The notes under the pieces were generated by a model, which saw only the letters and a program-made list of their open reading frames with translations, was not told the DNA's origin and made no database searches. The position numbers were made by a program, and so were the translations under genes. A stretch of DNA of 45,829 nucleotides from Candidatus Gottesmanbacteria bacterium RIFCSPHIGHO2_02_FULL_39_14 (GTDB lineage Bacteria > Patescibacteriota > Microgenomatia > 2-02-FULL-39-11), in assembly GCA_001779205.1 (NCBI GenBank), contig MFJM01000062.1, forward strand, positions 1-45,829. Direction: 5' to 3'. Positions within the stretch are counted from its first letter, which is position 1. Each line of letters begins with the position of its first letter. Positions 109 to 44,778 of this stretch are shown here, one piece after another.

Positions 109-144
109 TTGACAAAATGTATAAAAAGCATACAATAATTGTAT
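109..144 (+). promoter_or_regulatory. Sigma70-like promoter with overlapping palindromic operator for the RHH/PIN operon
   Basis: TTGACA (109..114), 16-nt spacer, TACAAT (131..136). A perfect 7-1-7 palindrome ATACAAT-A-ATTGTAT (130..144) overlaps the -10 and abuts the ATG at 145. Confidence 0.55.
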
Positions 145-408
145 ATGCAGACACAAACGTTAAATATTGCTTTACCTAAAGAGCTTGTTAAACAAGTTGA
201 TAAAGTGGCCGCCAAAGAATTCCGGAACCGCAGCGAACTTATCAGGGAAGTCTTAAGGATATATCTGGAAGACAAAAACGAATGGGAGGAAATATTCCGG
301 TTGGGTGAAATAACGATGAAAAGGATAGGAATTAAGAGCGAGAAAGATATCGATAAAATAGTATTAGAATATAGACATGGCCGTAGAAAGATTAAGAGTA
401 CTCCTTGA
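145..408 (+). CDS. Ribbon-helix-helix (CopG/MetJ-like) antitoxin
   Basis: The N-terminal 'LNIALPKELVKQVDKVAAKEFRNRSELIREVLRIYL' fits a beta-strand/helix/helix RHH pattern. The gene overlaps the downstream PIN gene by 32 nt. First ATG is at 145; the track ORF starts at TTG 139. Confidence 0.8.
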   Translation: MQTQTLNIALPKELVKQVDKVAAKEFRNRSELIREVLRIYLEDKNEWEEIFRLGEITMKRIGIKSEKDIDKIVLEYRHGRRKIKSTP

Positions 409-799
409 TACCAATATTTTAATATCGGCAATTGGATTTGGAGGTAAACCGAGAAAAATATTACAACATGTTTTAAAAAAGAAAATTATAGGAGTAACTT
501 CTTCTATTTTATTGGCAGAACTTGAAGATGTCTTAAATAAAAAATTTACCTTATTGTCACCTCATTTTGAACGGATAAATAAGTTGATCAGGAAGAGATT
601 TTATTTAGTGAAACCCACAGAAGAAATTCGTATCTTAAAGGATGATGATGATAATCGGGTATTGGAAGCAGCAAAGAAAGCTTCGTGCAGTTTTATTGTA
701 ACTGGAGACAAAGAATTATTAGATTTAAAAAACTTTAAAAATATTAAAATAGTTACTGCTGATCAATTTTATAAGTTCTTAACAGAAGAAGAGGTCTAG
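377..799 (+). CDS. PIN-domain toxin (VapC-like ribonuclease)
   Basis: 'VLLDTNILISA' near the N-terminus, 'LAELEDV', 'DDDDNRVLEAA' and 'IVTGDKELL' give the four acidic PIN positions. Size is about 140 aa and it is paired with an upstream RHH gene. Confidence 0.85.
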   Translation: MAVERLRVLLDTNILISAIGFGGKPRKILQHVLKKKIIGVTSSILLAELEDVLNKKFTLLSPHFERINKLIRKRFYLVKPTEEIRILKDDDDNRVLEAAKKASCSFIVTGDKELLDLKNFKNIKIVTADQFYKFLTEEEV

Positions 800-1203: not shown

Positions 1204-1695
1204 ATGGCAGATATTGGTCGTGATAGACTACCGCTACCACACCCGCCGGAAATAAATGCAAAAGAAGCAGGTGTAACTCCTTTGACTTCTGACGAACTCA
1301 GAAGAAGAGCTGAGGCCAGATCAGAAAAGCTTGCCCGAATCAAATTGAAAGTACATAATGCCTTGGAAAATTTCCGAAACGGTAAAATAAGCGAGAATAA
1401 TATAGAATCACTCAATCCTTCAAGAATTGTAAATACCGATACAGAACAGACAGAATCATCAAAGGCACAAGAATTGTTAAAAGCCATATTTCAAAAAAAA
1501 CAGGGAATTGGAGAATTTGTTAACCAGGCAGTAATGACTAACATGCAAAGAATAAGAAGATCTCAATTATCTGCAACACAAAAATGGCATAATTTAAAGA
1601 CTCAAATAAAACGAGGGGTAGTTTCTCCCAACTTAGAAAATGGGCTTAAAACTTTATTTTGTCAGAACCTGAAGCGCATTCCGGCAAGAGTATAA
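1204..1695 (+). CDS. Hypothetical protein (charged, helical-looking)
   Basis: 163-aa ORF, K/E/R-rich, with no motif I recognise. An extended -10-like TGATAATAT lies about 25 nt upstream (1170..1178). Confidence 0.5.
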   Translation: MADIGRDRLPLPHPPEINAKEAGVTPLTSDELRRRAEARSEKLARIKLKVHNALENFRNGKISENNIESLNPSRIVNTDTEQTESSKAQELLKAIFQKKQGIGEFVNQAVMTNMQRIRRSQLSATQKWHNLKTQIKRGVVSPNLENGLKTLFCQNLKRIPARV

Positions 1696-1713
1696 AATAA
1701 GCCTAATTTTTTT

Positions 1714-2040
1714 ATGGATGATCTCTTTGAAAAATATAAACAAAGAATAAATTCTCTTCCTATTTCTGAAGAGGAAAAAGATAAGCTTTTTAATAATTTT
1801 GCAACCGAACTTCAATTCAATTTAACCAATGCTTTCGCAGATACTTTAACTGACGAACAATTGAAAAAAATTGATGAGGCAGTCAATGATGAAGAAACTC
1901 TCAGAATATATTTTTCAATTTTAAACGAATCATTAGAACTTCCTGAATTTCTGGATTTTATTGAACAGACTTATACGGATATCATGACTAAAACTTTAAG
2001 CTCACTACCTGAATTTACCAATCAACCATCCCTAAAATAA
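1714..2040 (+). CDS. Small acidic hypothetical protein
   Basis: 108-aa ORF rich in D/E/L ('EEEKDKLFNNFATELQFNL...'). No enzyme motifs. It lies 18 nt after the previous ORF. Confidence 0.55.
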   Translation: MDDLFEKYKQRINSLPISEEEKDKLFNNFATELQFNLTNAFADTLTDEQLKKIDEAVNDEETLRIYFSILNESLELPEFLDFIEQTYTDIMTKTLSSLPEFTNQPSLK

Positions 2041-2091
2041 CACTTCTCTCCCCATGAAAAATAGAATTATATACTCTATACTGTAGTTGTG

Positions 2092-2805
2092 ATGAAGAAA
2101 AGTATCGGGCTTTGGCTAATTATTTTTGTATTCATTCTCTTCTTTTCAAGCTATAAAATGGCTTTTGCACAAACAGATCCGCCAACTCCCAACCCGACTG
2201 ATTATAAATTTGATATCAGCGGACCAACTATTACACCTCCCGATTATTCAAAGAATGAATGCCCTATATGCGGGGCGGGGCAATTCTGGTCAAGTGATCA
2301 CGGCTGCTGTAAATTTGATATAAATTTTTCTTCCGCATCATCCTTTAATATTGTCTGCGAGCAGCCGTCAATTGAAGTCTGCACGTATGATAAATTCTGT
2401 ATATCCGGAAAGGGTTGTTTATTAGGAGGTACAAAATTGAGCACCTTTAACCCTTCAGAATTATGCAACAAGCTGATTGTGCCTGAGGAGAATTCTCAAT
2501 GTTTAACCTGCATGCAGGATAATGAACACGTCTGGACGGCAATCGGATGCATACCGATCGGTTTGGCCAACCTTATTTCATCATATTTGGTTAAATTGGT
2601 GATGAGTATCGGCGGAGCCGCTGGATTTCTGGTTTTTCTTTACGGATCATATTTAATTCTGACTTCCGGTGACGATGTAGAAAGAGTAAAACTTGGCAGA
2701 AAATATATTACATCTTCACTTAAAGGTATAATCCTTATTATCTTCGGATTTCTTATATTCAGAATTATTACTGTAGATATACTAAAAATTCCCGGGTTTG
2801 AGTAG
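2092..2805 (+). CDS. Secreted Cys-rich protein with a C-terminal VirB2/TrbC-like (T4SS-pilin-like) two-helix membrane module
   Basis: Signal peptide 'KKSIGLWLIIFVFILFFSSYKMAFA/QT'. About 130-aa ectodomain with 12 Cys. The C-terminal 'GGAAGFLVFLYGSYLILTSGDDVERVKLGRKYITSSLKGIILIIFGFLIF' has the TM-loop-TM layout of VirB2/TrbC-type pilins. ATG at 2092 (GTG at 2089). Confidence 0.6.
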   Translation: MKKSIGLWLIIFVFILFFSSYKMAFAQTDPPTPNPTDYKFDISGPTITPPDYSKNECPICGAGQFWSSDHGCCKFDINFSSASSFNIVCEQPSIEVCTYDKFCISGKGCLLGGTKLSTFNPSELCNKLIVPEENSQCLTCMQDNEHVWTAIGCIPIGLANLISSYLVKLVMSIGGAAGFLVFLYGSYLILTSGDDVERVKLGRKYITSSLKGIILIIFGFLIFRIITVDILKIPGFE

Positions 2806-2810
2806 CAATA

Positions 2811-4469
2811 TTAAGTTTTTCCTTCTCCTTCTGATGGCATATGGGGAACTAATGGAGGTTCTTCAGGTTTCTTCGGATTTACAGTTCCAGGCTTATGGAA
2901 TATTTGACCGATTTTGGTCATTCCTCCTGAGGCTGCGCTACTATATGCATGAGCTATTGTCGGCAGGAACGGAATAATTGAAGCAACCACTCCTAAAATT
3001 GATGCAGGGGTTGTAGGAAAATTCACAAGCGTGTACTCAGGAATAATAGATTTTTTAATCCGGTCAATTATTGCCGGAATGGCCATTAAAACACCGATGG
3101 AGACAAATGAAGATAACACCGTCTGAGTGATGCCCGACAGAGGAGGAGGAAGAAAGGCATTTCCCGTTGAAGAGACTGCTTTTATTATATTAGCTCCGGC
3201 CAGAAAAAGAACCGCTAAAAGCGGAAAAGTAATAATATTAGCCAGCAACCTTTTTAACCATTTGGAAAACTGATTTTTTCCGGGGAAAATATCGGCCAGC
3301 AATAAAAAAGGGGCAAAAACAACGCCAAAGACTATTTCGATATACGAACCAATCAGAGTAAATAAAATCCTGAAATATAGAAATAAAAGAGCAAAATAAA
3401 TGGCAACGATTAAAACTAACTGTTCAAGTTTTTCGATTATTTGCGATGCAAGCCAACCGCTTAAGGGTATAGCCAAACCGCCTGCAGCCAGAGCTCCCGG
3501 GTCAAATTCCAAAGCAAAAAATCTGGTTTCAATGAAAGTAACTATATCGTGTAAGGCTGAAGCAACATTAGGATAAATCTGCATTCCAAGCATAAATGTT
3601 AAATTATCTTTGATCAGATTACGGACGGTATCGGGGATTATTTTTAAAAAGCTGTCGACAAAAGCATAGGGATTTGATTGAATAGTCAGAAAGTCAAAAA
3701 TTTCTCCCGGACTTGTATGACCGTATAAAGATTCAACCAGCTGGGCATCAACCAGATTATTGGTTCTGGCAATCTGAAATACAACCATTAAAGACAGGTA
3801 CATCAGATCGATAAAAAATCCGGCGATGGCAAAGGAAAAAGTTACTGTCAAAACAACCAAAACTGCTTTTAAAATAGTTTTTTCTATATCAATAGAAATA
3901 TTAGGATCGATTTTGAAACGGAATATATAAAGAAATCCGGTAATCAGAAGAGCTATAATGATCAAACTGTAAGCGATATTGCGGCTAATTGACCAGAAGG
4001 ACAGATAGGCTGAGAGTGAAGTCATTCCAAGTCCGGTTGCCTGGGCATAGACTTTGCCACCCATGGAAACATCCGACAGTTTATTCATCAGGGCAAAACT
4101 AAAGGAAGCCGGCGGATTGGCATAGGGAATAATAAAAAGATTGGAGGCAACTCCAAGCAAACCGTTTTTAAAATAATCATGGTTTTTATCTAATTTGAGT
4201 TCAACAGGTAATTTGGCTCCTTTTTTTAAAGATTCCTCCGAAAAACACTTCTCACCGACAATAATACAGGTCACCAGATGCAGATTTGTTACCCAACCGA
4301 TTAATTTTTCCGAATAATGACGGTTAAGATCCGTTGCCGACTGCGTTGCTATTTGAGCAGAGGGTGAGGTTTGGATGGATGTGGCAGATTGTGAATATAC
4401 AGGAGGGGCGGAAAAAATAATTAGGGGAAAAATCAGCAAAAAGATAAAGAGGTTTTTAATAAAGCTCAT
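2811..4469 (-). CDS. Polytopic membrane protein with signal peptide (tentatively VirB6/TrbL-like)
   Basis: 552 aa. N-terminal 'MSFIKNLFIFLLIFPLIIFSAPPVYSQ', at least 8 long hydrophobic segments and a Pro-rich C-terminal tail 'NPKKPEEPPLVPHMP'. The family assignment rests only on topology and on adjacency to the pilin-like gene. Confidence 0.6.
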   Translation of the reverse strand: MSFIKNLFIFLLIFPLIIFSAPPVYSQSATSIQTSPSAQIATQSATDLNRHYSEKLIGWVTNLHLVTCIIVGEKCFSEESLKKGAKLPVELKLDKNHDYFKNGLLGVASNLFIIPYANPPASFSFALMNKLSDVSMGGKVYAQATGLGMTSLSAYLSFWSISRNIAYSLIIIALLITGFLYIFRFKIDPNISIDIEKTILKAVLVVLTVTFSFAIAGFFIDLMYLSLMVVFQIARTNNLVDAQLVESLYGHTSPGEIFDFLTIQSNPYAFVDSFLKIIPDTVRNLIKDNLTFMLGMQIYPNVASALHDIVTFIETRFFALEFDPGALAAGGLAIPLSGWLASQIIEKLEQLVLIVAIYFALLFLYFRILFTLIGSYIEIVFGVVFAPFLLLADIFPGKNQFSKWLKRLLANIITFPLLAVLFLAGANIIKAVSSTGNAFLPPPLSGITQTVLSSFVSIGVLMAIPAIIDRIKKSIIPEYTLVNFPTTPASILGVVASIIPFLPTIAHAYSSAASGGMTKIGQIFHKPGTVNPKKPEEPPLVPHMPSEGEGKT

Positions 4470-4506
4470 TTATTTAACTATACTTAAGTTGCATAGTCAC
4501 ATCAAG

Positions 4507-6579
4507 ATGACTTATGCTAAATATATGCAAACAGTCAATCCGCAACTGCCGAATATGGAAATTCCCCAAAATCTGGAAAGATCAGTCGGCACTACTTTTT
4601 TCCAACAGCATCTGATTGCGAGTTTTGACAGCCAAAGCCGAACTTTGAGTGAAAGCAATTTTCTGAAGACTGAAGCACCGGCATTAACAAGAACGCAAAC
4701 ATTAGATTTATTAATTTCCCTGCAAAGGAACGAAGCCGACTATGCTACTTTTTTCGATAAACTGCCTAACATTACTCTTCATAATCCCGATGTAATACAA
4801 CCGGATATTCCGCTTCAACCGACAGACGAAAAATTAACCGGGATAATAAACATGCTGGCGGAACCAAAAGGAGAAACAAGCTGGATAGAAATATGCAAAA
4901 AATATTCAGGTAGCGGACGAGGAATAATTCAGCTAGCCGATGATTTAATAAAATCAAATCCCAATATCGGAGAAGCGGAATTTAGAGAAATCCTTCAACT
5001 ATTCCACGGGGATTTGAGAACTGAAGCTTACCTGGAAATGGCAAGACTGGACAGAATTTCAGGGCAGAATCCGGAGACTTGGGAATCTTTTTTGGGAGAA
5101 GTTTCCAGAAGCCAAATAAAACCGCAGGACTCGGAATTAAAATTACTGACAATAGGAAACGACGAAGTATTGAGAGCAAATACGGTAAAGTTTATTGAAA
5201 AGCAATCACAATTATTGAAACATTTAAAATTAAGAAGAAGTAGTGAAGATCCGTTTCTGATAATTGATAAACACGGTAAAAAATATGATCTGCAAAATCG
5301 TTCTGAAGCAAAGAGATTGTGGGAGGATTATCTGGTAATCAGGGGAGGAAGCGGTGTTACCTGGGTGGAGAAGGATTTATATAAAGTATTGGAACTTCCG
5401 CGAACTGCTATTCCTGACGAAATAAAAAGAGCATTCAGGAACCTGGCAGTAAAATTTCATCCTGACCACAACAAACAACAAGGAGCAGAAGAAAGATTCA
5501 AGGAAATTAACGAAGCTTATAGCATACTTTCGAATCCTGAAAAAAGGGCAAAATATGATAATTTGGGGAATAATGCAGTTGAATCAATATTAAAACCCGA
5601 CGAAAGGCTGGTTAATTTTTACTTCGATCATCTAAAAGGATACACTCCTCCGAAAGATTGGCATCTAGATGACTCGGGCTGGTGGACTAACAGAAGAACC
5701 GGAGAAAAAATCCATCCCCAAACGCCTCAGGGCGCTTACCGGATAATCCAGGAAATTTTGAGAGGGCTTCCTGATATTTGGGAAGACGGGAAAATCGGAC
5801 CGTTCCTAAACAAATACTATAAACAGCCTCGAGCCAAAAAAACACCACCACAAGGTAATCAAAATCGGAGTAAATCCAAATATGAACCGGAGTCAGTAAT
5901 TAATCCGGATAGTTCAGTAGCCGGACGCACGGACGTAGGTCAGAGGGAAAATAATGAGGACAATTATTTCATTTCGCCGGACGGAAAATATTTCGGGGTA
6001 TTCGACGGAGTGGGCGGAGCCAGCAAAGGGGAGGTAGCCAGTAAAATCGCTAAAGAGACTTTTGCTAACAGTTACCAGCGCAGTCTTGACTTTCTAATGC
6101 AGGAAGCAAACACAAATATTTACAGAACGGGAATAGAAAGAGATTTACAGATGGGTACTACAGGAACAGTTGCCAGAATTATAGGGAACAAACTTGAAAT
6201 AAACCATGTGGGAGACAGCCGGGCATATTTAATCAGGGATAAACAGATATACCAATTAACCACGGACCATGTTAATCCTTATAAAATTAACCAGTTGACC
6301 CGAGTGTTAGGCAGAGATCAAGAAGTGAACCCGGACAGACTGCAGTATAATCTGCAGGAGGGTGACCAGATTCTTCTTTGCACTGACGGTCTGACTAGAA
6401 AAGAGTACGGGCCTTCTGATGCCATAAGATACGGGCTTACTGATGCCGAAATATTAGAGGCGGTAGCAGCATCGGCTACACCTAAGGAAAAAGTAAGATG
6501 GCTAATTTACAGGGCAAACAGCAAGGGAGGCCGGGACAATATTACGGTAATTATCAAGAGTTTTACTCTTAAAAAATAG
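4507..6579 (+). CDS. J-domain (DnaJ-like) / PP2C Ser-Thr phosphatase fusion protein
   Basis: J-domain '[65 protein letters not shown]' with an intact HPD. C-terminal PP2C motifs 'RENNEDN', 'FGVFDGVGG', 'GTTGT', 'VGDSRAY', 'LLCTDGL' and 'GGRDNITV'. Start set at ATG 4507 because the track start (4375) overlaps the divergent gene. Confidence 0.85.
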   Translation: MTYAKYMQTVNPQLPNMEIPQNLERSVGTTFFQQHLIASFDSQSRTLSESNFLKTEAPALTRTQTLDLLISLQRNEADYATFFDKLPNITLHNPDVIQPDIPLQPTDEKLTGIINMLAEPKGETSWIEICKKYSGSGRGIIQLADDLIKSNPNIGEAEFREILQLFHGDLRTEAYLEMARLDRISGQNPETWESFLGEVSRSQIKPQDSELKLLTIGNDEVLRANTVKFIEKQSQLLKHLKLRRSSEDPFLIIDKHGKKYDLQNRSEAKRLWEDYLVIRGGSGVTWVEKDLYKVLELPRTAIPDEIKRAFRNLAVKFHPDHNKQQGAEERFKEINEAYSILSNPEKRAKYDNLGNNAVESILKPDERLVNFYFDHLKGYTPPKDWHLDDSGWWTNRRTGEKIHPQTPQGAYRIIQEILRGLPDIWEDGKIGPFLNKYYKQPRAKKTPPQGNQNRSKSKYEPESVINPDSSVAGRTDVGQRENNEDNYFISPDGKYFGVFDGVGGASKGEVASKIAKETFANSYQRSLDFLMQEANTNIYRTGIERDLQMGTTGTVARIIGNKLEINHVGDSRAYLIRDKQIYQLTTDHVNPYKINQLTRVLGRDQEVNPDRLQYNLQEGDQILLCTDGLTRKEYGPSDAIRYGLTDAEILEAVAASATPKEKVRWLIYRANSKGGRDNITVIIKSFTLKK

Positions 6580-6587
6580 GCATCTTT

Positions 6588-7427
6588 ATGAAAGTTAAAG
6601 CAGACAAAAATCCCAAATATATTCCGGACAGGAGAAAAACTTTACAGGCTTTTGCAGGTGGAATAATTCTGTCTGTAATCACCTTAATTCTCTTTTTTTA
6701 TATCATTTTAGTTCCAAGGTACGAAAAAAACTTGGAAAAGCAGGTGGAGGAAAGAACAAATTCTTTTTGGAGAAACCGGGAATACAGAATACCGGTATTG
6801 TCACCTACACCGATAATCAATAATTGCCCAAAATGCCAGGAACAAATATATAACTGGGACAATATCATGGAGTTTTATTCCATTAAAGTTGCTGATCCCG
6901 CCTGGGTAAAACTTGAAAGTAACAGGGTCGGAATAAGATTTGAATATCCGATTGAGGCAAATAAATTAGTCATGTTTGAATTTAATGAATGGGGGGAAAA
7001 CATATCCGATCCGAGCGGAACCGTATTTGTCTGGTCAACAAGAGGGTTAGGTGAAGAATTCGGAGAAGACTATTTTGCACAGGGAGCATCAAAAGATATA
7101 AAAGTCGGCCGCGAGGAGGTATTTTTATACAATTGGACCGAAAGCGAAGGAAAATATTATGTTAATGACACTAACGGCAATTCATATAAAGTAGAAAATA
7201 TTTTCACCAGAGAAATTCCAGCCGGCGGAAGGGCGTTATTGTTTAATACATTATGTTTTTGGGAGTATAAAGGGGGCTGCGAAGAAATAGAATATTCAAA
7301 AACGCTGATTGTCAATTTTCCCTTAAACCATCGAGAAAAAATTGAGAGCATACTATTTAACATACCCGCCGGTTTTACGGATGCCGACATTGAAAGACTG
7401 ATTGAGTCAATTGATTTTATTAAATAA
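6588..7427 (+). CDS. Membrane-anchored hypothetical protein (N-terminal TM, extracytoplasmic domain)
   Basis: 279 aa. TM segment 'AFAGGIILSVITLILFFYIILV' after a basic N-terminus. It starts 8 nt after the J-PP2C stop. No recognisable family. Confidence 0.6.
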   Translation: MKVKADKNPKYIPDRRKTLQAFAGGIILSVITLILFFYIILVPRYEKNLEKQVEERTNSFWRNREYRIPVLSPTPIINNCPKCQEQIYNWDNIMEFYSIKVADPAWVKLESNRVGIRFEYPIEANKLVMFEFNEWGENISDPSGTVFVWSTRGLGEEFGEDYFAQGASKDIKVGREEVFLYNWTESEGKYYVNDTNGNSYKVENIFTREIPAGGRALLFNTLCFWEYKGGCEEIEYSKTLIVNFPLNHREKIESILFNIPAGFTDADIERLIESIDFIK

Positions 7428-25218: not shown

Positions 25219-25812
25219 TTAATTCTGATAAATTTTCTTTAGGAAGTATTCATGAAATACAGTTGAGGTAAGTTCTGGATGGAAACACGAAGCCAAATAA
25301 TAACTGTTTCCTTTCTTTTGTTCACAGGCGATTATCTCACCCTCGTTTTCGGCAAGTATCTTTACATCTGTCCCGACACTTAATATTTTAGGAGCACGGA
25401 TAAATACCGCGTGAATCCTACCTAAACTTGTATCAATATCTTTTTCAAAAGAATTTATCTGCCTGCCATAAGCATTTCTGTCAATTTCTATATCCATCAA
25501 CTCCAGTGTCTTTTGATCAGGGATTTTATGAATTACACTCTTGGACAACATTATTGCTCCTGCACAGGTACCAAATATATTTTTGACTTTCCCCATATCT
25601 TCCCACATACCTTCACGTTGGCATAGCTTAAAAAGCGTAGTACTTTCACCACCAGGAATGATTAAGGCATCCAGATGGCGAATAATATTTTTTATGCGGA
25701 CAGGGATAACTTTAATATCTAATTGAAGATTTTTAGCGGCATGTTTTGAAGTTTCAATATGTTCTGATACATCGCCATGGAAAGCGAGAATTCCAACTTG
25801 TTTTGATTTCAT
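25219..25812 (-). CDS. pdxT: Pyridoxal 5'-phosphate synthase, glutaminase subunit PdxT
   Basis: 'VGILAFHGDVSEH', 'LIIPGGESTT', 'GTCAGAIML' (catalytic Cys), 'RNAYGRQ', 'FHPELT'. Confidence 0.93.
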   Translation of the reverse strand: MKSKQVGILAFHGDVSEHIETSKHAAKNLQLDIKVIPVRIKNIIRHLDALIIPGGESTTLFKLCQREGMWEDMGKVKNIFGTCAGAIMLSKSVIHKIPDQKTLELMDIEIDRNAYGRQINSFEKDIDTSLGRIHAVFIRAPKILSVGTDVKILAENEGEIIACEQKKGNSYYLASCFHPELTSTVFHEYFLKKIYQN

Positions 25813-25829
25813 AATGAATAATCAGGAAG

Positions 25830-26708
25830 TTAAATACCACGTAAAGCCATTTTTGTTTCCAGAGCAGAAATTTCTTGTCCTTTCATCGCCTCACCTAAAT
25901 CTTCACTGGCTTTAGCTATTTTGTCCGGTTCATAATAATGTGCAGTAGCGTCGACAATAGCTTTGGCTCTTTTTTCCGGATTACTGCTTTTAAAAATTCC
26001 CGAGCCTACAAATACTCCATCAACTCCCAATTGCATACATAAAGCTGCATCAGCTGGTGTAGCAATTCCTCCGGCGGCAAAATTTACAACTGGCAATCTG
26101 CCTAATTTGGCTGTTTTTATTAACAATTCATATGAAACTTTGTATTCTTTAGCTTTTTCTTTTAATTTTTTGATATTTTTTGACTTAATAAATTTCTTCA
26201 ATTCTTCAATACCGGAGTTCACTGCTCTTATATGCTTTACAGCTTCAACAATATTGCCGGTTCCAGCTTCACCTTTTGTCCTTATCATGGCTGCACCTTC
26301 ATCTATTCTGCGTAAAGCTTCTCCTAAATCACGACAACCACAGACAAAGGGCACTTTGAATTTTTTCTTGTCTATGTGAAATTGGGTATCTGCAGGAGTT
26401 AATACTTCGCTTTCATCAACAAAGTCAACCTCAAGAGTTTCTAATATTTGTGCTTCAACAAAATGCCCTATTCTACATTTAGCCATGACTGGTATCGTAA
26501 CTGCAGCTTGGATTTCTTTTATTTTAGTAGGATCCGACATTCTGACTACTCCACCGGTGGCCCGGATATCTGAAGGGACGCGTTCAAGAGCCATTACCGC
26601 TACCGCACCTGCTTTTTCGGCAATTATGGCGTGTTCAGCATTAACCACATCCATAATAACTCCACCTTTTAACATCTGGGCTAAATTTTTTCCAAGTCTA
26701 TTATTCAT
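25830..26708 (-). CDS. pdxS: Pyridoxal 5'-phosphate synthase, lyase subunit PdxS
   Basis: '[49 protein letters not shown]', '[16 protein letters not shown]', '[10 protein letters not shown]', '[11 protein letters not shown]', '[14 protein letters not shown]', '[10 protein letters not shown]'. Confidence 0.96.
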
Positions 26709-26781: not shown

Positions 26782-28902
26782 CTATCCGCGGACGACTTGG
26801 GGGTTGGTGGCGCCGACTATTTTTTCGGTGATATTTTTGGGTACTTCTTCGTAATGGGACGGTTCCATGTAATAAGTGGCTCTTCCTTGGGAAAGTGATC
26901 TTAAGATGGTAGCATACCCGGATAGTTCTGCCAGGGGGACCAGACAATTGATGATGGAAACTTTGCCTCTTTTTTCGGTTCCCAATATTTGAGCGCGTTT
27001 GCTGGAAAGGTCCCCTATGACTTTTCCCATAAATTCATCCGGAGTGGTAACTTCAACCTTCATAATCGGTTCCAGCAGAATTAGACCTGCCTGTTTGACA
27101 GCATTCTGCAGAGCCATACTGCCGGCAATTTTAAAGGCAATGTCGGATGAGTCAACATCATGATAAGTTCCATCATAAAGGGTAACTGTAATATCAACCA
27201 GAGGGTATCCTGCCAGGACTCCTTTTTCCAAAGCTTCTTTAACTCCTTTTGCCACAGAAGGAATAAATTCATTGGGAATAGCTCCGCCTTTGATGGCGTC
27301 AACAAATTCATAACCTTCACCCCTGTTTTTAGGTTCAACTCTGACCAAACAATGGCCGTACTGACCACGGCCACCGGTTTGTCTGATGTATTTGCCTTCA
27401 CCTTCAGCTGCCGATTTAATTGTTTCCTTATAGGCAACTTGAGGTGCGCCGACATTGGCCATGACATTAAATTCTCGCTTCATTCGATCAACTAAGACGT
27501 CAAGATGCAGCTCTCCCATACCCCAAATGATTGTTTGGCCTGTCTCAAGGTTTGATTTGATGATAAAAGTCGGATCTTCTTCAGCCAATTTCTGAAGAGC
27601 AGTTCCCATTTTTTCCTGATCAACCTTGGTTTTGGGTTCAATTGCCAGAGAAATAACCGGTTCGGGGAAAGTAATTTTTTCCAGAAGTATAGGATGTTGC
27701 GGATCAGATAAAGTATCTCCGGTACCTGTTTCTTTAAGACCGACAACAGCGACTATTTCTCCGGCAAGAGCTTCTGGTATTTCTTCCCTCTGATTGGCAT
27801 GCATAAGAAGAAGACGACCGACTCTTTCCTGTTTGTCTTTGGTAGAATTCCAGGCATAAGAACCGGAGGTTAATTTGCCGGAATAAATTCTAATATAGGT
27901 TAATTTACCGACGTGAGGATCAAGCTGTATTTTAAAAGCCAAAGCTGAAAACGGTTGATTAGTTTCCGTTTTACGAACCTCTTCCTGATTGTTTTTGGGG
28001 TTGATACCTTTTATTGAAGCTACATCCAAGGGGGAGGGTAAATAATCCACTATAGCATTAAGAAGCGGCTGGACACCTTTATTTCTTAAAGACGAGCCGC
28101 TAAAAATAAGAACAAATTTATAGGCGATGGTAGCCTGACGTAGGGCTTTTTTTAATTCTTCTAGGGAAGGTTCCTTACCGTCAAGGTATTTTTCCAACAA
28201 TTTATCATCAGTTTCGCAAATCTGTTCGATTAATTGATGGCGATATTCTCCGACATCTTTAACCATATCAGCGGGAATTTCATCTTTGACATCAAACTTT
28301 GCTCCCATTTCCATTTCTCCCCAAACCAGACTTTTTTTGGTCAAAAGATCAACTACACCCTTAAATTCATGTTCTTTACCAATGGGAAGATTCATAACAG
28401 CGGGATTAGCACCCAGACGATCTCTGATCATGCCGACTGTGCGATGAAAATCTGCACCAAGCTTATCCATTTTATTGATGAAACAGATACGAGGAACTTT
28501 ATATTTATCAGCCTGATGCCAGACCGTTTCCGATTGTGACTGAACACCTTCTTCAGCGTCAAGAACTGTGACTCCGCCATCCAGGACTCTTAATGACCTT
28601 TCCACTTCGGCTGTAAAATCGACATGTCCTGGAGTATCAATAATATTAATTCTGACGTCCCGCCAAAAAGTTGTAGTGGCAGCAGAGGTGATGGTAATAC
28701 CTCTTTCTTTTTCCTGAGGCATCCAATCCATTTGGGTAGTTCCCTCATCTATATCGCCGATCTTATATGTTCTGCCTGTATAATAAAGTATTCTTTCAGT
28801 AGTGGTTGTTTTACCGGCATCAATGTGAGCGATAATGCCGATATTACGGATTTTATCAAGAGGAACATTTCGGTTTTTAGTAACGGTTAATAATCCTGCC
28901 AT
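26782..28902 (-). CDS. fusA: Elongation factor G
   Basis: '[23 protein letters not shown]', '[13 protein letters not shown]', '[10 protein letters not shown]', '[16 protein letters not shown]'. Confidence 0.97.
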
Positions 28903-43689: not shown

Positions 43690-44778
43690 ATGGTAACTGC
43701 CTCTGATGTATCTTCGGGTGAATTTGCGGAATTAGCCCAACTGCAACAAAAGATCACTAATTCCTCAATTCCAGCCGATCTTCGGATAAAAGCACAAACG
43801 ATGATCGACCGGGCAGCCCTTTCATTCAAATATCACAGCCAATTTATGCAGTTTGACGTGGTGGCCAGTTATATTGACTGGATAACCTCCTTACCCTGGG
43901 AGTCACGAAGTACTGATATTCTGGATATAGAACAGGCTAAACAAGTTTTGGATAAAAATCATTACGGTTTATCTGAACTTAAAGACAGAATTCTGGAATA
44001 TCTGTCGGTAATGAAAATGAATCTTGATCAGGCAAAACTTGATCCAATCAGCAAAAACCATAATTTTGCCAGGGCACCGATTTTATTCTTCGTAGGGTTA
44101 GTCGGAACGGGTAAAACTACCATGGCTATTTCAATTGCTGAGGCTATGGGCAGAAAATTAATGAGAATACCTTTCGGCGGGATGGGGTCGGCACTGGACT
44201 TGAGAGGTGAATCACGGGTACATCCTGATGCCGAAGTCGGTCAGATAATGAAATCATTGAGACGAGCCGGAACAAAAAATCCGGTGATACTCTTAGATGA
44301 ACTGGACAGAGTGGCGGAACATGCCAGGGCTGATATTATGGGGGTTCTAATTGAACTTCTGGATCCGGAACAGAACGTGGCCTTTGTGGATCATTATATT
44401 GACTATCCGTTTGATTTAGCGGAAGTGCTTTTTATTGCCACAGCCAATAATACCAATAACATCTCTACAGCGGTGATGGACAGATTAGAACCGATTCAAA
44501 TGCCCAGTTACAGCGATGATGAAAAAATCATTATCGGCAAATCTTATGTTTATCCCAAAGTTCTAGCGGCTTCAGGACTCACATCTGACCAGTTAACTAT
44601 TGTTGATGGCGTTTGGCCGACAATTGTCCGTCCGCTCGGATTTGACTCAGGTATCAGAACTCTGGAAAGAACCATTGACGGGGTCTGCCGGAAAGTAGCC
44701 AGACAAATAATAGAAAAGAAAATCAATAAAATAATATTAAGTGAGGATAACGTTAAACAATTCCTGCCGACCTGGTAA
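43690..44778 (+). CDS. Stand-alone LonA-type AAA+ ATPase module (no N-terminal LON domain, no protease domain)
   Basis: Collinear with the central part of Lon. 'YIDWITSLPWESRS', 'LDKNHYGLSELKDRILEYL', Walker A 'GLVGTGKT', Walker B 'ILLDELDR', 'LLDPEQNVAFVDHY', 'FIATANN', 'MDRLE', 'GIRTLER'. The ORF stops at 362 aa and rnj starts 20 nt later. Confidence 0.8.
   Translation: MVTASDVSSGEFAELAQLQQKITNSSIPADLRIKAQTMIDRAALSFKYHSQFMQFDVVASYIDWITSLPWESRSTDILDIEQAKQVLDKNHYGLSELKDRILEYLSVMKMNLDQAKLDPISKNHNFARAPILFFVGLVGTGKTTMAISIAEAMGRKLMRIPFGGMGSALDLRGESRVHPDAEVGQIMKSLRRAGTKNPVILLDELDRVAEHARADIMGVLIELLDPEQNVAFVDHYIDYPFDLAEVLFIATANNTNNISTAVMDRLEPIQMPSYSDDEKIIIGKSYVYPKVLAASGLTSDQLTIVDGVWPTIVRPLGFDSGIRTLERTIDGVCRKVARQIIEKKINKIILSEDNVKQFLPTW

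Follow-up and report, generated by a model that had tools for sequence, protein, structure and literature searches.

A J-domain fused to a PP2C-type phosphatase in a conserved pilin/membrane-protein cassette of Microgenomates bacteria

A 45,829-nt stretch of DNA from Candidatus Gottesmanbacteria bacterium RIFCSPHIGHO2_02_FULL_39_14 (contig MFJM01000062.1, positions 1 to 45,829), which we call the window, contains a gene whose product joins a J-domain and a protein phosphatase domain of type 2C (PP2C) in one polypeptide. We refer to this gene as gene E, as it is the last in a conserved cassette of five genes, A to E. The open reading frame (ORF) is uninterrupted from 4375 to 6579 on the plus strand in the ORF listing of the window and allows for a protein of up to 734 amino acids (aa). 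An earlier note on this DNA, made from the sequence alone, had set the start at 4507, where indeed an in-frame ATG is found. The start at 4525 is the better one, because the orthologue from Roizmanbacteria (P0002) aligns only from the residues MQTVNP at this position onwards and the GenBank model OGG15957.1 uses the identical start. We prefer this model and give residue numbers for the resulting 684-aa protein, with the exception of Pfam coordinates, which are in the 690-aa numbering that starts at 4507. In GenBank the protein is recorded for Candidatus Gottesmanbacteria as 'hypothetical protein A3D78_03305' (OGG15957.1/OGG31103.1, 684 aa), and the UniRef name is 'J domain-containing protein'. 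Neither a transmembrane segment (maximum 19-residue Kyte-Doolittle hydropathy: 0.71) nor a signal peptide was found in it, and the lack of any hydrophobic segment predicts a soluble protein.

According to the earlier note, the protein consists of an unrecognisable N-terminal region, a J-domain and a PP2C domain. All three parts were recovered: DnaJ (PF00226) and PP2C (PF13672/PF00481) matched above their Pfam cut-offs, and the N-terminal region gave no match. The anatomy of three parts was incomplete, however, as a fourth conserved piece (residues 357-430) is inserted between the J-domain and the phosphatase. The coordinates of these parts, together with those of all further features, are collected in Table 1.

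Table 1. Positions of gene E and its parts, of the cassette genes and of further features. Positions refer to the window unless another locus (L) is named.
Feature	Position	Strand	Evidence
Gene E, J-domain/PP2C fusion protein, 684 aa + stop	4525..6579	+	ORF, orthologue alignment, GenBank, domain matches
N-terminal all-helical domain, residues 1-233; core motif HGDLRTE at 5005..5025	4525..5223	+	AlphaFold2 (AF2)
Beta-hairpin + helix sub-domain, residues 234-282, directly before the J-domain	5224..5370	+	Predicted secondary structure
J-domain, residues 283-352; HPD at 5458..5466	5371..5580	+	Pfam, PDB matches
Family-specific small middle domain, residues 357-430; GWWTN at 5677..5691	5593..5814	+	AF2, own hidden Markov model (HMM)
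Low-complexity spacer after the middle domain	5815..5910	+	Predicted local distance difference test (pLDDT) < 50
PP2C (PPM) Ser/Thr phosphatase domain, residues 463-684	5911..6576	+	Pfam, NCBIfam, Foldseek, tPphA alignment
Gene A, 163-aa basic (net +6 to +12) soluble protein	1204..1695	+	Positional conservation
Gene B, 108-aa acidic (net -10 to -13) soluble protein	1714..2040	+	Sequence conservation
Gene C, 238-aa secreted Cys-rich protein with two C-terminal transmembrane helices, VirB2-like 'T4SS_pilin'	2089..2805	+	PF18895
Gene D, 552-aa polytopic membrane protein with signal peptide, divergent from E	2811..4469	-	Conserved synteny
D/E divergent intergenic region, 55 nt	4470..4524	.	Alignment of 5 loci
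279-aa protein with a single transmembrane segment, 9 nt after gene E	6588..7427	+	ORF
89-aa ORF, putative ribbon-helix-helix antitoxin	139..408	+	Reading of the sequence
140-aa PIN_3/PIN protein, E-value 1e-19	377..799	+	Pfam
Clp-like unfoldase loci	L021:1-3537, L051:2-3925, L065:3-4178, L040:3-3920; also L022, L037, L038, L041, L061, L062, L067	-	
1100-1350-aa protein loci, about 8.3-12.5 kb each	L016, L025, L026, L028, L031, L036, L038, L041, L051, L065		
Examples of the 1100-1350-aa protein	L026:8756-12493; L051:8274-12323		

The J-domain was detected by PF00226 at residues 290-351 with an E-value of 1.3e-24 (86.5 bits versus a cut-off of 27.8), and a sequence search of the PDB matched J-domains of known structure at 1e-19. 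In the AF2 model its helices span residues 285-288, 297-311, 321-335 and 338-349, and the HPD tripeptide (H312-P313-D314) is located in the loop between helices II and III. This tripeptide as well as K340, R341 and Y344 of helix IV are invariant in all seven members of the protein family described below. With a mean pairwise identity of 44% the J-domain is also the best-conserved segment of the family, and its nearest relatives are the J-domains of housekeeping DnaJ proteins (55-65% identity). The canonical J-domain with an intact HPD motif claimed by the earlier note is thus well supported, and the same is true for its statement on the missing parts of DnaJ: a Gly/Phe-rich (G/F) region, the zinc finger (PF00684) and the DnaJ C-terminal domain (PF01556) were not found in gene E using Pfam. 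Scores with the NCBIfam models fell below the cut-offs for DnaJ (TIGR02349, 93.7 versus 377), CbpA (53.9 versus 403), DjlA (19 versus 162) and HscB (23 versus 47). The second-best NCBIfam match came from the TopJ models NF037946 (99 bits versus 300) and TIGR03835 (83 versus 512), in which the J-domain alone aligns. The absence of PF00684 and PF01556 together with the DnaJ and CbpA scores far below cut-off makes the gene E product a predicted class-C (type III) J-domain protein.

For the C-terminal part, the models PP2C_2 (PF13672, E-value 9e-13, 48.6 bits versus 24), PP2C (PF00481, 6e-12, 46.3 bits versus 20.3) and SpoIIE (PF07228, 3e-7) gave three PP2C-type matches covering residues 473-683 (690-aa numbering). 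The sequence relatives in the PDB are tPphA, PstP, Stp1 and MspP (E-values of 1e-17 to 1e-12), and a Foldseek comparison of the PP2C model with tPphA, PstP, Stp1 and PppA resulted in E-values of about 1e-15 and target template-modelling (TM) scores of 0.75-0.82, with 0.77-0.82 for tPphA and PstP, at 26-32% identity. The phosphatase motifs are located at 5944..5961 (RENNED), 6004..6018 (DGVGG), 6211..6222 (GDSR), 6382..6393 (TDGL) and 6532..6540 (RDN). In a residue-level alignment with tPphA, the equivalents of R13, D18, D34/G35, D119, D193 and D231 are all present in gene E, which means that the phosphate-binding Arg and every metal ligand are kept, as the earlier note had read from the motifs. 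Only the flap stands out in the alignment, being about 17 residues shorter than in tPphA. All seven family members agree in DGxGG, GDSR, TDG and the final Asp (D671). The score with the NCBIfam equivalog for Stp1/IreP (NF033484, Stp1_PP2C_phos) was 145.4 bits and did not reach the cut-off of 230. The domain is of the PstP/tPphA/Stp1 type and predicted to be catalytically competent.

To describe the remaining parts, we used AF2 models of the full-length protein, built on the alignment of the seven family sequences (mean pLDDT 77). The model starts with a disordered segment (residues 1-21), followed by an all-helical part (25-233), a beta-hairpin with a helix (236-270) and the J-domain (285-349); the C-terminal half consists of the middle domain (361-429), a disordered spacer (435-461) and the PP2C sandwich (465-679). 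When the N-terminal 282 residues were modelled alone, the pLDDT was 82.7 and the predicted template-modelling score (pTM) 0.83. This region had no Pfam match and no sequence or profile match in the PDB, and the N-domain had no Foldseek neighbour either, with best E-values of 3.4 in the PDB (TM < 0.2) and 0.4 in BFVD and with TM <= 0.23 throughout. As judged from the models, it is a new, well-defined and confidently folded helical domain without a known relative. The middle domain (pLDDT about 80) is built from a helix, short strands and then further helices and carries a conserved GWW/GWY motif. Its HMM matched only family members when 269 fetched proteins and all ORFs of the loci were scanned.

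The N-domain is kept in 7/7 family members, and the hairpin unit is missing in the two shortest ones, P0119 and P0120. The hairpin unit was also weakly matched by the HMM of the middle domain (independent E-value about 2.5, not significant), a hint of a duplicated motif flanking the J-domain. Mean pairwise identities in the family are 33% for the PP2C domain, 31% for the N-domain and 23% for the middle domain. A variant of the architecture is found in locus L011, in which a 533-aa tandem paralogue (1326-2927, plus strand) lies directly upstream of the J-PP2C gene. It combines the N-domain (HMM E-value 5e-15) with a PP2C domain (39% identity) and lacks both the J-domain and the middle domain. 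From this paralogue, N-domain and PP2C look like the functional core of the protein, and J-domain and middle domain like an insertable module.

The distribution of the family was determined by an exhaustive HMMER scan with a two-sequence profile against 1.84 billion sequences that represent about 15 billion proteins clustered at 50% identity. Eight proteins were found below an E-value of 1e-30, seven of which have the whole architecture; the remaining one consists of six repeated J-domains. The seven clusters (the window protein, P0002, P0115, P0116, P0118, P0119 and P0120) each encode the protein in a single ORF of 684-758 aa. Both members with a named organism, from Gottesmanbacteria and Roizmanbacteria (P0002), fall into the Microgenomates group of Patescibacteria. 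When the full protein was used in a word-index homologue search, one full-length relative was recovered, and a scan of GTDB species genomes, a collection from which the genome of the window is evidently missing, yielded the Roizmanbacteria locus only.

These data also bear on the possibility that the fusion is an artefact, in which mis-assembly or a frameshift has fused separate genes for a J-protein and a PP2C, or in which the domain matches arose by chance. The identical gene E ORF is present on three independently assembled contigs (in its 734-aa maximal form) and the orthologue P0002 on five, and seven diverged clusters keep a single ORF, so the J-PP2C fusion is real and not two genes joined. 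Chance matches are ruled out by the domain E-values of 1e-24 and 1e-13, and AF2 folds all parts confidently; we give an artefact practically no credence.

Among the 269 fetched proteins, two more combine a J-domain and a PP2C domain. Both are singletons on contigs of 2-3 kb: P0231 (409 aa) has the order PP2C-J-DUF5763, and P0125 (303 aa), which is possibly chimeric, has a signal peptide followed by the J-domain and a PP2C domain without motif I. They share the two Pfam domains with the family, but are arranged differently and lack both the N-terminal and the middle domain. P0231 and P0125 are thus independent inventions and not family members, and the pairing has been invented more than once, yet is extremely rare. 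Its independent origin in the order PP2C-J (P0231) suggests that the pairing is useful. In 8 million searchable full texts no description of a J-PP2C fusion was found, and the main text of a large survey of J-domain proteins does not mention PP2C (PMC10410713). The expectation that the architecture had not been described therefore holds with regard to its rarity and the literature, but the combination is not strictly unique.

Gene E is locked to a module for a pilin-like protein and a membrane protein. The cassette with the order A-B-C-D-E, in which D is encoded in reverse, is present in the window and in loci L001, L010, L012, L014 and L015; in L011 and L013 gene D is cut by the end of the contig. 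At every locus with enough flank, D is head-to-head with gene E, down to E identities of 28%. Gene A is found at the same position in five loci (137-163 aa), with weak sequence conservation and without a Pfam match. The proteins encoded by gene B (106-110 aa across loci) are 55-58% identical to the window copy and had no match in Pfam or the PDB; a word search with B returned three clusters only. The gene C proteins (about 235 aa) have a signal peptide and 12 invariant Cys residues. The match of C to the type IV secretion system (T4SS) pilin family PF18895 is marginal in the window (26.7 bits versus a cut-off of 26.6), and 5/5 orthologues matched at an E-value <= 1, the best at 6e-6. Gene D encodes proteins of about 552-578 aa across loci with 45-65% identity and had no sequence relative in the PDB. 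The match of D to VirB6/TrbL was below threshold and confined to one of five members, and we leave it as 'VirB6-like, unproven'.

The intergenic region between D and E is 44-55 nt long in the window and in three of the four other aligned loci and 146 nt long in L014. The alignment of the five loci revealed a conserved block, ACTATA-CTTAA-TTG. Sigma-70-like sites can be placed on the minus strand (TTGATG-17-TATAGT, 4505->4477) and on the plus strand (4456-4484); they are not enriched over shuffles. Hexamers resembling a -10 element are located close to both starts (TATAGT 7 nt before D and TATGCT 6 nt before E). With such a geometry, the mRNAs would be leaderless or nearly so and the divergent promoters would overlap, but given the unenriched consensus scan we did not rely on it.

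The 279-aa gene downstream of gene E is probably co-transcribed with it in the window. It was rejected as a member of the cassette, as it occurs only in contigs of the same species and is absent or replaced by a different gene downstream of other family members; searches of Pfam, PADLOC and PHROG assigned its product to no family. An origin from a defence system or a phage was rejected as well: PADLOC matched neither A-E nor the 279-aa protein, and PHROGs gave only domain-level matches to the J-domain and PP2C in gene E.

The earlier note had placed the gene in a 'surface-apparatus island'. While this applies to the cassette with its VirB2-like pilin and polytopic membrane protein, the window as a whole is mostly housekeeping core and includes genes for S9, L13, L17, RpoA and EF-G, a ribosomal protein operon, nusA, infB and pnp. 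The outer flanks of the cassette differ between genomes: in the window it is bordered by a PIN toxin gene and by the ribosomal operon, in L010 by pth and a Mur ligase gene. The cassette therefore travels as a unit.

The housekeeping surroundings are in agreement with a reading in which gene E is the general equivalent of Stp1/PstP for Hanks kinases encoded elsewhere. Here, the J-domain would serve for regulation or folding of the protein itself by DnaK, or would bring the phosphatase to DnaK-bound clients, including DnaK, and the linkage to the cassette would be inherited synteny. The nearest relatives of both domains, the Stp1/PstP/tPphA class for PP2C and the housekeeping DnaJ proteins for the J-domain, fit this reading as well. 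However, a housekeeping phosphatase is expected to be far more widespread in candidate phyla than seven clusters in 1.84 billion, and the Stp1 equivalog score (145 versus 230) is too low. Furthermore, inertia alone is a poor explanation for a cassette that is kept at 28% E identity despite differing outer flanks. We consider a general phosphatase unlikely, though it deserves to be kept in mind.

To place the cassette in a wider context, we scanned metagenomes with the gene D alignment, which yielded at least 91 relatives, 80 of which were kept for context counts. Gene C adjoins D in at least 44 of these 80 loci, but B and E were found only in the close relative L015. C-D is thus a widespread module in candidate phyla, and a single narrow subclade adds A, B and E to it as accessories. 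Within this subclade, the C-terminal region of D contains the elements FPTTP ... PFLP ... PHMP, whereas other D relatives have a Gly-rich tail.

Two further observations were made in the D loci. Of the 80, 11 carry a gene for a ClpB/ClpC-like AAA+ unfoldase that diverges from an operon with the order [Peptidase_C39-like/CHAP][~150 aa][D]. This protein of about 1180-1390 aa consists of Clp_N, two AAA modules and ClpB_D2-small, and carries an N-terminal extension of roughly 240 aa that is conserved among the D-locus copies. It may parallel the J-domain partner or may merely reflect lineage synteny of a housekeeping clp gene. In addition, many D loci encode a protein of 1100-1350 aa without a Pfam match downstream of C, which is absent from the J-PP2C cassette.

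In a survey of patescibacterial T4SS-like systems, VirB2-like pilins of PF18895 are especially abundant in Microgenomatia, and VirB6 is described as 'scarce' in this group, which the authors put down to extreme sequence divergence (PMC12102498). Relaxases are usually missing from these systems, for which a role in host interaction is proposed, and J-domain or PP2C partners do not occur as terms in this survey (PMC12102498). Against this background, gene E could encode a translocated effector, as the earlier note had also suggested. Exported through the pilin/membrane module, with B acting as secretion chaperone, the protein would enter the host cell of a presumably episymbiotic bacterium, where the J-domain would hijack the Hsp70 of the host and PP2C would erase its phospho-signals. 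The adjoining VirB2-like pilin and VirB6-like membrane protein are consistent with this idea, as is the small, acidic and conserved neighbour B, for which size and charge are the sole basis of the chaperone proposal. In addition, across the four complete and diverged loci L001, L010, L012 and L014 the sequence has changed more quickly in gene E (28-48% identity to the window copy) than in B, C and D (44-65%). On the other hand, neither a signal peptide nor a recognised translocation signal was identified in gene E, and neither VirB4 nor a coupling ATPase was found in the cassette or the window. The J-domain, the best-conserved part of the protein, is of the ordinary bacterial DnaJ type and fits the DnaK of the cell itself equally well, and the status of gene D as VirB6 is unproven. 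As no experimental or comparative signal of secretion was found and nothing favours an effector specifically, we regard this explanation as quite improbable.

The reading that we prefer, with a probability of about 45%, is that the product of gene E acts in the cytoplasm as a class-C J-domain protein and links DnaK recruitment and Ser/Thr dephosphorylation to an envelope module. The protein would work on the C-D module, with its N-terminal domain, perhaps together with the middle domain, docking on a partner from the cassette, either the tail of D or the A/B pair. PP2C would then strip regulatory phospho-Ser/Thr from the docked partner, which would have been modified by a kinase encoded elsewhere. 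The HPD loop would fire the ATPase of DnaK, making Hsp70 clamp this very target and remodel it by holding, assembling or disassembling it. The net role would be that of a phosphorylation-gated, Hsp70-powered factor for the assembly or recycling of a pilin/membrane-channel apparatus, comparable by analogy only to a combination of PppA control of type VI secretion with the J-domain targeting of TopJ or auxilin. Consistent with this reading, the J-domain and the complete PP2C site are kept together under selection in a soluble protein that is bound to the module by synteny. The secretion-machine regulator PppA is among the Foldseek neighbours of the PP2C domain, which we also count in favour.

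Several findings weigh against the coupling model. Among the annotated neighbours, no kinase, FHA or other phospho-reader domain is encoded in any cassette, and the catalytic-loop motif of Hanks kinases was absent from the window and the seven related loci. This agrees with the earlier note, which had seen neither a kinase nor an FHA gene nearby, and makes the phospho-switch pure inference. No VirB4-type ATPase was found in the cassette, the scanned ORFs of the window or the annotations of the related loci, and 'type IV secretion' is therefore not established; the TrbL/VirB6 match of gene D (PF04610) reached only 18.9 bits versus a cut-off of 25.9 and was seen in 1/5 orthologues. The cognate dnaK is not located in the 45.8-kb window. 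In the Roizmanbacteria protein P0002, and in this member only, motif I of PP2C is degenerate (RENNED is replaced by ERKSDG), and its PP2C domain is only 29% identical compared to 54% for the N-domain; judging from this drift, phosphatase activity may be dispensable in some family members. The pTM of the full-length model is 0.41, and therefore nothing can be said about domain packing. Moreover, a gene neighbourhood is linkage and not mechanism.

A more far-reaching proposal is that the cassette encodes an unrecognised envelope machine of the Microgenomates, made of a VirB2-like pilin and a divergent VirB6-like channel, which is driven or gated by Hsp70 through the J-PP2C protein and not by a VirB4-type ATPase. 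The Clp-like unfoldases with their unique N-terminal extension beside many other C-D loci hint, in parallel, that the C-D module generally works with a cytoplasmic chaperone motor. In its strongest version, J-PP2C would be delivered into a host bacterium, seize the DnaK of this cell and erase its Ser/Thr phospho-signalling. We mention this as a speculation with little likelihood.

Elsewhere in the window, the overlapping pair at 139..408 and 377..799 looks like a toxin-antitoxin system of the VapBC type. A pair of genes for pyridoxal 5'-phosphate (PLP) synthase, pdxT (SNO, E-value 3.5e-46) and pdxS (SOR_SNZ, 5e-103), is located on the minus strand at 25219..26708, where it closely follows the EF-G gene (26782..28902, likewise minus strand), a biosynthetic pair in an otherwise translation-dominated stretch of a reduced genome. 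For the ORF at 43690..44778 (plus strand, 362 aa), an AAA module and a Lon lid domain were detected, but no Lon protease domain lies within the ORF; Lon may be truncated or split here, or the product may be an independent AAA+ protein.

J-domain proteins decide which targets are acted on by Hsp70, and they are known for their combinatorial diversity; PP2C phosphatases reset Ser/Thr signalling. A single polypeptide doing both would, if true, be a compact bacterial example of phosphorylation-coupled chaperone targeting, for which we found none in the searchable literature. T4SS-like surface machines in candidate phyla are thought to underlie the host-dependent lifestyle of these ultrasmall bacteria, and gene E offers a biochemically tractable handle on how a pilin/membrane module is assembled or regulated. 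The impact is limited by the rarity of the family (seven 50%-identity clusters) and by the lack of cultured hosts. What is novel is a J-domain protein with an unprecedented enzymatic partner, a novel targeting domain and a newly delineated cassette of five genes.

Compared to the patescibacterial T4SS-like gene sets, the cassette has the PF18895 pilin in common, whereas VirB4, VirB3, TrsD and a coupling protein were found neither in the cassette nor in the window. With PstP, Stp1/IreP, tPphA and PppA, a PP2C that gates assembly of the type VI secretion apparatus, gene E shares the fold and the catalytic residues. These phosphatases are stand-alone or membrane-anchored proteins encoded beside Hanks kinase or FHA partners; in gene E, which has no such partner nearby, PP2C forms the C-terminal part of a 684-aa multidomain J-protein, has a shortened flap and scores below the Stp1 equivalog cut-off.

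Among the J-domain proteins, DjlA, HscB, CbpA and TopJ resemble gene E in that an HPD-containing J-domain is the only part derived from DnaJ and the rest is a specialised targeting region. In gene E, however, the J-domain is internal and not N-terminal, there is no homology to these proteins outside of it, and none of them carries an enzymatic domain like PP2C. TopJ is a J-protein for assembly of the terminal organelle of Mycoplasma, a surface structure in a bacterium with a reduced genome, and gene E is similar in both its reduced-genome host and its apparent tie to a cell-surface structure. A parallel in logic is found in eukaryotes: auxilin and GAK (DNAJC6/DNAJC26) combine a phosphatase-like domain, a targeting region and a J-domain, and in this way place the J-domain on one assembly for remodelling by Hsp70. 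The phosphatase-like domain of auxilin is PTEN-like instead of PP2C and non-catalytic towards protein, and its J-domain is C-terminal. As no relationship in sequence or structure was detected, the comparison is an analogy only, but the shared logic is that of a J-domain brought to a single target by the parts to which it is fused.

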